Source: Syntrophales bacterium
GTDB lineage: Bacteria > Desulfobacterota > Syntrophia > Syntrophales > UBA6807
NCBI GenBank assembly: GCA_040767195.1
Contig: JAXGPA010000002.1
Coordinates: forward strand, 1-64,000
Reading direction: 5' to 3'
DNA length: 64,000 bases
Both the position numbers and the translations under genes were made by a program. Shown here piece after piece: positions 48,524 to 53,778 of this stretch (positions are counted from its first letter, which is position 1; the number at the start of each line of letters is the position of its first letter). Below the pieces are notes generated by a model, which searched no databases, was not told where the DNA came from, and saw nothing but the letters and a program-made list of their open reading frames with translations.

Positions 48524-48562
48524 AAAAGGGCCATGGTGGGGTTTCCGCCGCCATGGCCCTTT
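48524..48562 (-). terminator. second terminator-like hairpin (T2) of the aro leader
   Basis: AAGGGCCATGG...CCATGGCCCTTTT, directly upstream of the aroF RBS. Confidence 0.75.
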
Positions 48563-48569
48563 CCGGATG

Positions 48570-48613
48570 AAAAAAAAGCCATGGTGCAGATCCTCCGACC
48601 TGCCCATGGCTTT
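48570..48613 (-). terminator. attenuator terminator (T1) of the aro leader
   Basis: AAAGCCATGG GCAG...CTGC A CCATGGC followed by U8. Confidence 0.85.
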
Positions 48614-48641
48614 CGCCTTTTATGTCGCGCGTTTCAGCGTG

Positions 48642-48716
48642 TCACAGGCGACGGGCAGACCGGTCTCTGTAAAAATAATAAAACCAGCTGCCGATTGAAT
48701 GCCTGTGGTTATCCAC
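48642..48716 (-). CDS. aro-operon leader peptide MDNHRHSIGSWFYYFYRDRSARRL
   Basis: 24-codon ORF (GTG start after a purine tract) with six consecutive aromatic codons, upstream of terminators and aroF. Confidence 0.85.
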   Translation of the reverse strand: MDNHRHSIGSWFYYFYRDRSARRL

Positions 48717-48939
48717 TGAAAAAAACCTTCCTCTGTAAAATACGTATTTCAAAAAACCACACTTCTGACAGCCTGTCAAGTCTTTTTTGCAGGCCCTTCT
48801 TACGGGCCCCTTTTTACAGACCCCCGATTTTTTAACTGAAGACTCTGTTTTTGTTTATTTTTTGCAACCCATCCCTTTGATAGCCCTTGCGCCGATCCGC
48901 CCGGAGACAGGTAACCCGGGCGTCCGTTGAAGGCGCCCC

Positions 48940-49599
48940 TCACGGTTTCACAAATATTTTTTTCTCCCCAGCGCCTTCGCCCCTTCCCTTGATTATTTCC
49001 ACGACGCTCATCACCTTGCCGGGGTCCTTGACGCCCGGCGCGGACTCGATGCCGCTGTTCACATCCACGGCATCCGGGGAAACGGCCTCCACGGCCTTGG
49101 CCAGGTTTTCCGCCGAAAGTCCGCCGGCCAGTATGAGCCGATGCCGCCGGGCCAGTTCCCAGGCGAGACCCCAGTCGGCCCGCAACCCCGTTCCCCCGGG
49201 CCGGTCCGCGGTGGCGGCATCGACGAGAAGGGCCCGGACGAAACGGGACAGCTCTTCCAGCCTTTCCCGGGAATCCCCGGAGAAACCGGTGACGGCCTTG
49301 ATGACTCTCTCCGGCTGAAAATGCCGGATCGTCGAAAGGGTTTCCCTTCCATGGAGCTGGACCAGGTCAAGGCCGCAGAAGGCGCCGACCGTCTCGATCT
49401 CCCGGGGGTCCCCGTCGACGAAGACACCCACCGTCACCACCTCCGGCGGCAGGGCCCGGATGACGGCCTTCACCGTTTCCGGCGGGACGAAACGGGGACT
49501 TGGGGGGTGAAAGATGAACCCCAGGGCGTCGGCACCGGCTTCGGCCGCCTGTAGGGCGTCCCTTTTCGACGTAATCCCGCAGATCTTTATTTCCGTCAT
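48940..49599 (-). CDS. trpF: phosphoribosylanthranilate isomerase
   Basis: IKICGIT, VQLHG.E, GGTG, LAGGL, DVNSGIE..PG.KD. Confidence 0.95.
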   Translation of the reverse strand: MTEIKICGITSKRDALQAAEAGADALGFIFHPPSPRFVPPETVKAVIRALPPEVVTVGVFVDGDPREIETVGAFCGLDLVQLHGRETLSTIRHFQPERVIKAVTGFSGDSRERLEELSRFVRALLVDAATADRPGGTGLRADWGLAWELARRHRLILAGGLSAENLAKAVEAVSPDAVDVNSGIESAPGVKDPGKVMSVVEIIKGRGEGAGEKKIFVKP

Positions 49600-50381
49600 T
49601 TTCCCAGCAGTTCTCTCAGTTTTTCCCCCGGGTCCTTCCGGGACACCAGGGCTTCGCCGACGAGAAAGGCCCGGATACCGGCCCGGGTCAGCCTCTCCAC
49701 ATCGGCCCGGGTTTGTATTCCGCTTTCGCTGACCACCGCCCGGTCCGGGGGGATCCGGGGGGCCAGGCGCTCGCTCATCGAAAGATCGGTGACGAAGGTG
49801 CGAAGATCCCGGTTGTTGATTCCCAGGAGCCCCGCCCCGGCCGCCAGGGCTTTCGTCAGATCTTCTTCCCCGTGAACCTCCACGAGCGCCTCCAGGCCCG
49901 CCTCCCCGGCCTCCCGCAGAAGCCCCGCCAGTTCTTCTGTCTCCAGGAGGCCCGCAATGAGAAGGACGGCATCGGCGCCGAGAAGGCGGCTCTCCCAGAC
50001 CTGGCAGGGGTCGATGATGAAGTCTTTCCTGAGGAGGGGAAGGCTCACGGCCCTCCGGGCCCGGGTCAGGTCTTCTTTTTCCCCTCCGAAAAATTCGCGA
50101 TCCGTCAGGACGGACACCGCCGCGGCTCCTTCCCGCTCGTAAAGACGGGCCAGGCCGACGGGGTCGAAATCCCGGGAGAGAATCCCTTTGGAAGGCGATT
50201 TCCGTTTCACCTCCGCGATCACGGCAACGGCCCCGGTGGTGATGGCGCCCCTGAAATCCCGGCTGGGCGGGCTTTTCGCCGCTTTCGCCCGGAGTCTTTC
50301 GAGGGTCTCCCGGGCTTTCAGGCGACGCACTTCCGCCTGTTTCGCCGCCACGATCTTTTCGAGAATCGTGGCAGGCGTCAC
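49596..50381 (-). CDS. trpC: indole-3-glycerol phosphate synthase
   Basis: [34 protein letters not shown]. Confidence 0.96.
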
Positions 50382-51489: not shown

Positions 51490-52065
51490 TCACCCCCGGT
51501 GGACGAACTCAAGAAAATTCCGGATGAGCCGCTTCCCGTTCGGGGTCAGGACGGACTCGGGATGAAACTGGACTCCCTCCACGGGATACTGGCGATGGCG
51601 GATGGCCATGATTTCGCCCTCCTCGGTCTCGGCGCTGATCTCGAAGAAGGGAGGCAGGGACTCCCGTTCCACGATGAGGGAATGGTACCGTCCGGCGGCG
51701 AAGGGATTGGGCAGCCCCTTGAAAATCGTTCGCCCGTCATTGAGGATAGGCGAAGTTTTCCCGTGCATCAACCGGGACGCCTTGATCACCCGGGCCCCGA
51801 AGGCGAACCCGATGGCCTGGTGGCCCAGGCAGATCCCCAGGATCGGGACGCGCCGGTGAAAATGCCGGACCGTGTCCACGGTGACGCCGGCGCTCAGGGG
51901 CGTGGACGGCCCCGGGGACAGGAAGATGGCCTCCGGCCGAAGCGCTTCCATTTCGTCCAGGCCGATCTCGTCGTTCCGCCTGACCAGGACGTCCTCACCG
52001 AGCTGTCCCAGGTACTGGACAAGATTGTAGGTAAACGAGTCATAGTTGTCGATCATGAGTATCAT
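51490..52065 (-). CDS. trpG: anthranilate synthase component II
   Basis: [28 protein letters not shown]. Confidence 0.95.
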
Positions 52066-53576
52066 CGCGCCCTCTCCTCTTCATGGTGAATTTCGAGAGC
52101 CCCCGACGCCATCCGCACGGCCTCGAGAAGGGCTTTCGCCTTGTTTTCCGTTTCATCGAACTCGGCGGAAGGATCGGAATCGGCCACGATCCCCGCCCCT
52201 GTCTGGATGGTCAGTTGCCCGTCCCGGAGGACCATGGTCCGGATGGTGATGCACAGGTCCATGTTCCCCGAGAAGCCGATATAACCGACGGCGCCCCCGT
52301 AGGGCCCCCGGGGAGCGGCCTCCAGTTCCTCGATGATCTTCATGGCCATCACCTTCGGGGCCCCCGTCAGGGTTCCCGCCGGGAAAACCGCCGGGATCAC
52401 GTCGAAGGCGTCCTTCCCGTCGGCCAGTTCCGCCTGGACATGGGAAACCAGGTGCATGACGTGGGAGTACTTCTCCACGATCATATACTGGGTCACCTGG
52501 ACCGACCCGGTCGCGGCGATTCGGCCCAGATCGTTGCGTCCCAGGTCCACGAGCATGACGTGCTCGGCCCGCTCCTTTTCGTCCCGGAGAAGCTCATCGG
52601 CGAGCCCGCGATCCTCCTGTTCGCTTTTTCCCCGCTTCCGGGTGCCCGCGATGGGCCTCAGGTCGACCGTTCCCTCCTCCAGCCGGACGAGGATTTCCGG
52701 GGACGACCCGACAAGGTGAAGGCCGCCGAGCTTGAGAAAGAAGAGATAGGGAGACGGGTTGATGAACCGGAGGGCCCTGTAAAGGGACACCGGGTCAACA
52801 TGGCACGGGCCCTCGATCTTTCGGGAAAGGACGGCCTGAATGATGTCCCCCTCGACGATCCGCTCCTTCGCCCGCCTCACAACGGCCCCGTAGGCTTCCC
52901 GGTCCATGGTGGACCGGAAGGCAGGCATCGTTCCTTTCTTCGCCGGCCCTTTGCGCTTCTCGCCGGAAAAGGCGGGAGCCTCCAATATTTCGACGAGACC
53001 GTCGATTCTGCGGACCCCTTCTTCGTAACGTTCTCTCAGGTTGTCCCCTTCCCCGACGTGAACGGTCGTCACCACCTTGATGGTGTGTTTCACGTTGTCG
53101 AAAACGGCCACCGTGTCGGTGAGGAGGAAAACGGCCTCATCGGCTCCGTTTTCCTCCGGTCCCGGGGAAATCTTCTCGAAAAAACGGATCATCCCGTAGC
53201 CGAGAAACCCGACGGCCCCCCCGTAAAACCGGGGCAGTCCATCCAGGGGAACGGGCCGGAAGTCGGCCATGAGTTCCCTCAGGATCGACAGGGGCTTCCC
53301 CTCGTGATTCCGCGTGACCGTGGTCCCGTTTTTCTCGATGTGAACCGCGTCGCCCCGGACACGAAAGACCACCCGGGGATCGGCGCCAAGGATGGAGTAA
53401 CGGCCCCACTTCTCGCCGCCCTCCACGCTTTCCAGGAGAAACACGTTCTCCCGGTCCGCCAGCTTGACGAGGGCGGACACGGGCGTTTCCAGGTCCGCCA
53501 GAATCTCCCGGTAAAGGGGGATGAGGTTTCCCTTCGCCGCCATCTTTTCAAAGGTTTCGAACGGGGGGTGATGCAT
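52062..53576 (-). CDS. trpE: anthranilate synthase component I
   Basis: LLES, NPSPY, SSPE, PIAGT, EHVMLVDLGRND, PAGTLTGAPK. Confidence 0.96.
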   Translation of the reverse strand: MHHPPFETFEKMAAKGNLIPLYREILADLETPVSALVKLADRENVFLLESVEGGEKWGRYSILGADPRVVFRVRGDAVHIEKNGTTVTRNHEGKPLSILRELMADFRPVPLDGLPRFYGGAVGFLGYGMIRFFEKISPGPEENGADEAVFLLTDTVAVFDNVKHTIKVVTTVHVGEGDNLRERYEEGVRRIDGLVEILEAPAFSGEKRKGPAKKGTMPAFRSTMDREAYGAVVRRAKERIVEGDIIQAVLSRKIEGPCHVDPVSLYRALRFINPSPYLFFLKLGGLHLVGSSPEILVRLEEGTVDLRPIAGTRKRGKSEQEDRGLADELLRDEKERAEHVMLVDLGRNDLGRIAATGSVQVTQYMIVEKYSHVMHLVSHVQAELADGKDAFDVIPAVFPAGTLTGAPKVMAMKIIEELEAAPRGPYGGAVGYIGFSGNMDLCITIRTMVLRDGQLTIQTGAGIVADSDPSAEFDETENKAKALLEAVRMASGALEIHHEEERAR

Positions 53577-53591
53577 CTTTCTCCTCGTGAC

Positions 53592-53630
53592 GAAAAAGGC
53601 CGTGTCGACGTGGTCGGCACGGCCCTTTTC
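53592..53630 (-). terminator. second terminator-like hairpin (T2) of the trp leader
   Basis: GGCCGTG CCGAC...GTCGA CACGGCC TTTTT, directly upstream of the trpE RBS. Confidence 0.75.
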
Positions 53631-53645
53631 TTTTTTTATTTCCGT

Positions 53646-53688
53646 AAAAGAAAAAGGCCGTGGAAGTCAGGATCTTCCACGGCCTTTC
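53646..53688 (-). terminator. attenuator terminator (T1) of the trp leader
   Basis: AAAGGCCGTGGAAG...CTTCCACGGCC TTTTTCTTTT. Confidence 0.88.
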
Positions 53689-53706
53689 ATGCTTATTTCA
53701 CGCGTG

Positions 53707-53778
53707 TCAGCGGCGGACAGATCCCTCCCTGTGGCTCCGCCACCACCAGCTCATTTCATGATTCATGGATCGGGTCAT
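53707..53778 (-). CDS. trpL: trp leader peptide MTRSMNHEMSWWWRSHREGSVRR (exact start ambiguous)
   Basis: Short ORF with TGG TGG TGG, between a TTGACA promoter-like element and the terminators upstream of trpE. Confidence 0.88.
   Translation of the reverse strand: MTRSMNHEMSWWWRSHREGSVRR

Follow-up and report, generated by a model that had tools for sequence, protein, structure and literature searches.

Can a single stalled ribosome control two transcription terminators placed one behind the other? The question is raised by a stretch of 64,000 nucleotides (nt) from a Syntrophales bacterium (assembly GCA_040767195.1, contig JAXGPA010000002.1, positions 1 to 64,000; hereafter the window, whose numbering is used for both leaders), in which the trp operon and the aro/pheA operon are each preceded by a leader read on the minus strand. 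Each leader holds two hairpins with U tracts, T1 and T2, and the 3' arm of T1 can pair with the 5' arm of T2 in what we call the relay; this anatomy had been proposed in a preliminary description of the DNA and is confirmed for both leaders, on the minus strand, at the positions listed below. Both are probably leader-peptide transcription attenuators of the his type, built as a chain of helices, in which the middle hairpin is itself terminator-like and transcription would terminate at both sites. The trp leader consists of the following elements (SD, Shine-Dalgarno sequence).

53833 to 53838, minus strand: possible -35 hexamer TTGACA of the trp leader promoter, proposed from the sequence; family relatives have TTGACA at a like position
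53707 to 53766, minus strand: trp leader peptide MNHEMSWWWRSHREGSVRR, then stop; alternative start at 53778, Trp codons at 53748-53740
53709 to 53725, minus strand: 5' strand of the antiterminator; its partner is the T1 5' arm plus loop, about 53685-53669
53646 to 53684, minus strand: terminator T1; stem 53684-53656 (core of 11 base pairs, bp), U tract 53655-53646
53618 to 53662, minus strand: relay helix; T1 3' arm and U tract with the purine tract and T2 5' arm
53593 to 53624, minus strand: terminator T2; interrupted stem 53624-53598, five U at 53597-53593
52062 to 53586, minus strand: SD (53586-53581) and trpE, the head of trpE-G-D-C-F; above the TIGR00564 cut-off

The aro leader repeats this order of elements.

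48642 to 48716, minus strand: aromatic leader peptide MDNHRHSIGSWFYYFYRDRSARRL, then stop; GTG start, WFYYFY codons at 48686-48669
48652 to 48662, minus strand: 5' strand of the antiterminator; partner 48606-48596
48570 to 48610, minus strand: terminator T1; stem 48610-48578 and eight U
48551 to 48584, minus strand: relay helix; 48584-48571 with 48564-48551
48524 to 48559, minus strand: terminator T2; stem 48559-48528 and only four U, a weak tail in this genome
47477 to 48519, minus strand: SD (48519-48513) and the DAHP synthase gene (ATG at 48505), first gene of the aro/pheA operon; above the NF006421 and TIGR01361 cut-offs

These leaders have the sequence features of the classical leader-peptide attenuator, namely a leader open reading frame (ORF) with cognate codons (three Trp codons in a run, WWW, ahead of trpE), an antiterminator strand in the end of the ORF, and an intrinsic terminator after its stop codon. 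By folding, the trp antiterminator makes 14 pairs and covers 6 of the 7 T1 arm bases, and the aro antiterminator of this genome makes 11 pairs and covers only 3 of 7. The trp relay joins 53662-53646 to 53634-53618 over 17 bp with one G-U pair, and the aro relay has 14 bp with four G-U pairs. With ample Trp (or Phe/Tyr/Trp), the ribosome at the leader stop codon would cover the antiterminator strand; T1 would form and terminate, and polymerases running past T1 would meet T2, which would be free to form because T1 holds on to its 3' arm. In starved cells a ribosome stalled at the regulatory codons would let the antiterminator take the T1 5' arm; the T1 3' arm, thus released, would pair with the emerging T2 5' arm, and neither terminator would form. 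A tighter off state from two terminators is the plausible gain predicted by such a scheme.

The design is not confined to these two operons. Scans of the genome revealed three further leaders with two terminators and a relay, rich in Val, Phe and Ala codons. The Val-rich leader (L165, G000:C8:17788-17859, minus strand) lies ahead of an ilv operon that holds two genes resembling acetolactate synthase. The Phe-rich leader (L166, G000:C7:139141-139206, minus strand) lies ahead of an ABC transporter operon, in which the gene after the leader has only a weak family match, as an ABC substrate-binding protein, and another gene is presumably CoA-ligase-like; this leader suggests a phenylalanine-related substrate for the transporter. 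The Ala-rich leader, with ORF, antiterminator and two terminators (L294/L296, G000:C1:916457-916535, minus strand), precedes an aminotransferase gene whose best family is alanine transaminase, below its cut-off, and is a candidate alanine-sensing attenuator; its Ala-rich ORF recurs in 8 of 8 matching genomes (71 searched), each time with two hairpins by eye. A sixth leader, rich in Trp and located ahead of a TrpB-like gene, trpB2 (L295/L304, G000:C1:620780-620960, plus strand), has the same chain of helices with no U tract on hairpin 1, and hairpin 2 is its sole terminator. As for the window, its trp operon (48940-53576) has neither trpB nor trpA, the TrpB-like gene, which has a Trp leader of its own, being on a different contig.

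Within the order, leaders were parsed by an alignment-anchored method in 73 regions upstream of trpE (with matches in 127/161 genomes), 70 for aro (145/161), 30 for ilvB (58/121) and 30 for the transporter (89/121). A leader with T1 was present in 69/73, 70/70, 30/30 and 29/30 of these regions respectively, T1 starting 17-31 nt past the leader stop codon in the trp and aro leaders, and T2 was called in 65/69, 63/70, 30/30 and 26/29 of the leaders. The second hairpin and the relay pairing are kept in related leaders (T2 in 184/198), as had been asked of orthologues. The tails are kept as well: at least 5 U in 9 nt follow T1 in 64/65 trp and 63/63 aro leaders, with 7.2-7.8 U in 9 nt for T1 tails overall, and at least 5 U in 9 nt follow T2 in 60/63 aro leaders. 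Among the four trp leaders in which T2 was not called are one where T2 is visible (G009), one where it is decayed (G039) and one where it is absent (G067), and a trp leader that was overlooked owing to its decayed T1 tail (G080) has T2. In six leaders (L003, L037, L057, L073, L083, L205) palindromic or repeat-like DNA is inserted between T2 and the start codon or, in L205, stands in T2's place. Of 63 trpE regions from beyond the order, 10 have double leaders, 5 have two hairpins of which the first is weakly tailed and 7 have single ones; 1 was mis-parsed and in 40 no leader was parsed. One further double leader was found by eye (G292). RNA data are listed for 17 runs, all of them as assembled contigs; those from four runs break near both window leaders and, as such contigs cannot show ends, strand or level, were not used as evidence.

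The preliminary description knew of no account of this architecture, but novelty of the domino logic is not supported, as the his leader already chains its helices likewise. In hisL of Salmonella and E. coli, according to the available text of PMC4046918, a stalled ribosome favours B:C and D:E, thereby removing the terminator E:F. Our check of the E. coli K-12 sequence finds the same stem sequence in C:D and E:F, and no U tract after C:D, so that the his leader has a single terminator. The likeness lies in the relay through a shared stem, in which the middle hairpin, once opened, offers its 3' arm to the 5' arm of the terminator downstream. However, the middle hairpin here has 7-8 U in 9 nt, and the leaders sense Trp, aromatic residues, Val, Phe and Ala, not His; a middle hairpin lacking a U tract, as in his, is absent from the window leaders and occurs only among trpB2 leaders (20/23). 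The relay logic is thus already known from his, and what differs here is the terminator-like middle hairpin. Since a his-like trpB2 form exists alongside the double form, the two forms look interconvertible. The trpL leader of E. coli alternates helices 1:2, 2:3 and 3:4 with one terminator; the window leaders resemble it in their tandem Trp codons and in an antiterminator that would take the terminator 5' arm by kinetic priority, but trpL has no downstream relay. A covariance-model search of the window against Rfam gave only transfer-messenger RNA (tmRNA) at gathering score, and no leader family matched, the relevant ones presumably being Trp_leader and His_leader; the tmRNA gene, at 1-339 on the minus strand, is truncated by the window edge.

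For rimP in some Gammaproteobacteria, a leader with two tandem terminators and a possible antiterminator has been described; the two stem motifs are called inverse there, and the text available mentions no leader peptide or relay (PMC2965389). A precedent for the Ala leader of this genome is mycobacterial whiB7, where an alanine-enriched upstream ORF controls a terminator, although its target is a transcription factor and the part of the paper available describes one terminator (PMC10274678). One terminator is likewise described in what is available of PMC5794164 and of PMC11857589. No description of the relayed double-terminator layout was found in the literature searched, and subscription-only attenuator surveys, including one from 2010, may cover such leaders.

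Whether the alternative states can form was considered by folding 183 leaders, the modelled ribosome being placed either on the regulatory codons (starved) or at the stop codon (replete). In the starved state the antiterminator covers at least 5 of the 7 T1 arm bases in 176/183 leaders (trp 62/64, aro 58/63, ilv 30/30, Phe 26/26), and in the replete state the two hairpins are both predicted at P>0.9 in 179/183. If the U tract is kept in the hybrid, the relay beats T2 in 132/183 leaders (trp 55/64, aro 29/63, ilv 26/30, Phe 22/26), and in this genome in 4 of 4 tested. The antiterminator itself beats T1 in only 71/183 leaders and loses to it in 112/183, and equilibrium folding alone was on this ground rejected as a criterion. 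Considering these 71 leaders, and that the trpB2 relay is ahead of T2 in only 5/23, the switch would have to rely on folding order.

Is the relay then maintained by selection, or does it follow from similar stems? All four arms are GCCRYG variants or the complement, with stems 1-2 bases off the consensus, which makes the trp and aro leaders look paralogous rather than independent inventions; the earlier argument that different stems in two leaders speak against chance is therefore to be abandoned. As shared stems yield some cross-pairing anyway, the relay (T2 5' arm with T1 3' arm) was compared with a symmetric control pairing needed by no model (T1 5' arm with T2 3' arm). At core positions 1-5 of 184 leaders, mismatches number 0 in T1, 10 in T2, 8 in the relay and 36 in the control, while shuffling the relay within classes gives a mean of 13.7, with 0.1% of shuffles as low as the observed 8. 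Among family-level changes that break just one of the two pairings, the relay was spared in 13 and the control in 2 (p=0.004, nominal), and in 5 class/family cases T2's own pair is broken with the relay pair retained. Moreover, the relay is the in-register minimum free energy structure of its segment in 184/184 leaders, T2 positions 4-5 follow those of T1 across four leader classes, and in 55 sequences, chosen as one for each family and class, pairing of the relay reaches 97.6% with 27 changes on both sides, the same as for T2. With its pairing conserved and its covariation directional across the order, the relay is very probably functional, and the proposal that the antiterminator takes the T1 5' arm, leaving the T1 3' arm able to take the T2 5' arm, is supported. 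The length once claimed for it, 14-17 bp, holds for the two window leaders, but the long purine:U extension is not supported as a general feature: the conserved core is 5-7 bp, and in the majority of aro relatives the purine tract is missing (on average 3.3 purines over the 6 nt ahead of the T2 arm).

Several observations weigh against a relayed double terminator. In the 55 sequences the control is 94.8% paired and also lies above all 500 shuffles, so that the shuffle test does not single out the relay; at ilv position 6 the relay has 19 mismatches and the control 6; and related sequences are not independent, kinship inflating all the relay and control figures. The Ala leaders mostly carry relay mismatches. 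T2 is gone or decayed in some lineages (aro 7/70), and its tails are short in this genome. On the folding side, there is the aro relay, ahead in fewer than half of its leaders, and the low trpB2 count; with the U tail free to pair, the relay beats T2 in only 65/183 leaders, and the barrier from relay to T2 (median 8-11 kcal/mol) is about half of that from antiterminator to T1 (16-19), which makes the aro relay the least secure step.

The strongest competitor, though an unlikely one, is a plain his-type relay with one effective terminator, where T2 would be the attenuator and T1 a protector terminating little, its U tract serving as a pause site or an extension of the relay. For such a reading speaks trpB2, where 23 of 30 regions were parsed and 20 of the 23 leaders are his-like, doing without a U tract on hairpin 1 (3/23 have a U-rich first tail); so does the decay of the T1 tail in trp leaders of family f24 and in 5/22 parsed phylum-level leaders, as well as the fact that the relay is favoured in 132/183 leaders with a U tract against 5/23 trpB2 leaders, mostly without one. 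However, the T1 stem is stronger than that of T2 (medians -22 to -27 and -15 to -21 kcal/mol) and the T1 tail holds 7.2-7.8 U in 9 nt; the aro leaders retain the T1 U tract though they are mostly without purines to pair with it; and lineages that have lost T2 keep T1 as their only terminator. Termination at both sites is still our preferred reading.

A classical attenuator acting at T1 only is slightly less probable again. Here T2, duplicated or consensus-like, would act either as a leaky terminator that is always on or as a stem stabilising the RNA, and the relay would be a by-product of common GCC/GGC stems. In fact the stems are all variants of one motif, GCC, CCC and GGC are the most frequent stem ends among 216 terminator-like hairpins of the genome, the control pairing covaries too, and T2 wins at equilibrium in many aro leaders. 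Same-stem hairpins also occur as repeats: among 740 hairpin and T-tract arms of the genome an identical 6-mer arm is shared by only 2 tandem pairs, one being the trp leader and the other a tandem palindromic repeat after a tRNA-like gene, from which it follows that such hairpins can arise without attenuation. Yet the asymmetry between relay and control, and T2 positions tracking those of T1 in four classes, stand against a by-product; a strong unregulated T2 would cap induction; and the his-like trpB2 leaders would have no other route to regulation, as their only terminator begins 78-115 nt past the Trp codons and on our reading could be regulated only via the relay. The relay of both window leaders also exceeds chance: when T2 was swapped for each of the 216 hairpins, the relay energy was reached by 0/216 for trp and 0/216 for aro.

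That T2 gates translation through the SD, as the preliminary description had suggested it may, is very improbable: T2 does end 4-6 nt from the SD in both window leaders, and a longer form of T2 can bring the T1 tail into pairing with the SD region, but the SD lies outside the T2 stem, its computed pairing is the same in the off and on states (trp 0.87 vs 0.88, aro 0.84 vs 0.90), and among the 98 of 184 leaders with a parsable start the pairing differs by more than 0.3 in favour of the off state in 1 and of the on state in 16, with T2 at most 12 nt from the SD in only 14/98 and more than 40 nt away in 13/98.

Taken more widely, the leaders with double terminators could belong to a phylum-wide, unannotated attenuator family, for which we see about even chances, where one ribosome decision governs two functional terminators in series, so that off-state read-through is multiplied down at no cost to the on state, where gain and loss of the U tract on the middle hairpin tunes operons among single, his-like and double forms, and where the same chassis is re-aimed at Trp, aromatic residues, Val, Phe and Ala. 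If both stops work, this would be a natural way to cut the leak of an RNA switch without a second sensor, which would suit energy-starved syntrophs and could serve synthetic biology. The natural series of single, his-like and double leaders connects the textbook trp-type and his-type attenuators and allows a direct test of what the extra hairpin contributes. The leaders are also unannotated, and among them the putative Phe- and Ala-sensing ones give a clue to what a transporter and an aminotransferase act on.

The surroundings of the two leaders are as follows. In the trp operon, TrpG is above the TIGR00566 cut-off, the best match of TrpF is below its cut-off, and trpD and trpC are what we take the remaining genes to be by their likeness to known sequences. 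Upstream, two small membrane-protein genes adjoin the trp leader (53852-54906, minus strand), the nearer with weak YeeE/YedE-family matches. A promoter scanner chose a weaker site (53829-53802) over the TTGACA listed above, and a simple terminator scanner, whose limits on loop size the other hairpins exceed, reported trp T1 alone on the minus strand. In the interval from trpF to the aro leader (48780-48940) the only call is a plus-strand hairpin (48792-48808), with no terminator on the minus strand; trp transcripts may therefore continue into the aro attenuator, stacking both controls. The DAHP synthase gene is followed by aroB and a prephenate dehydratase gene. Elsewhere in the genome, tandem GGGGAC...GTCCCC palindromes with U tracts and no leader peptide occur at G000:C10:31033-31098 and G000:C1:488624-488692, one pair adjoining a tRNA-like gene.

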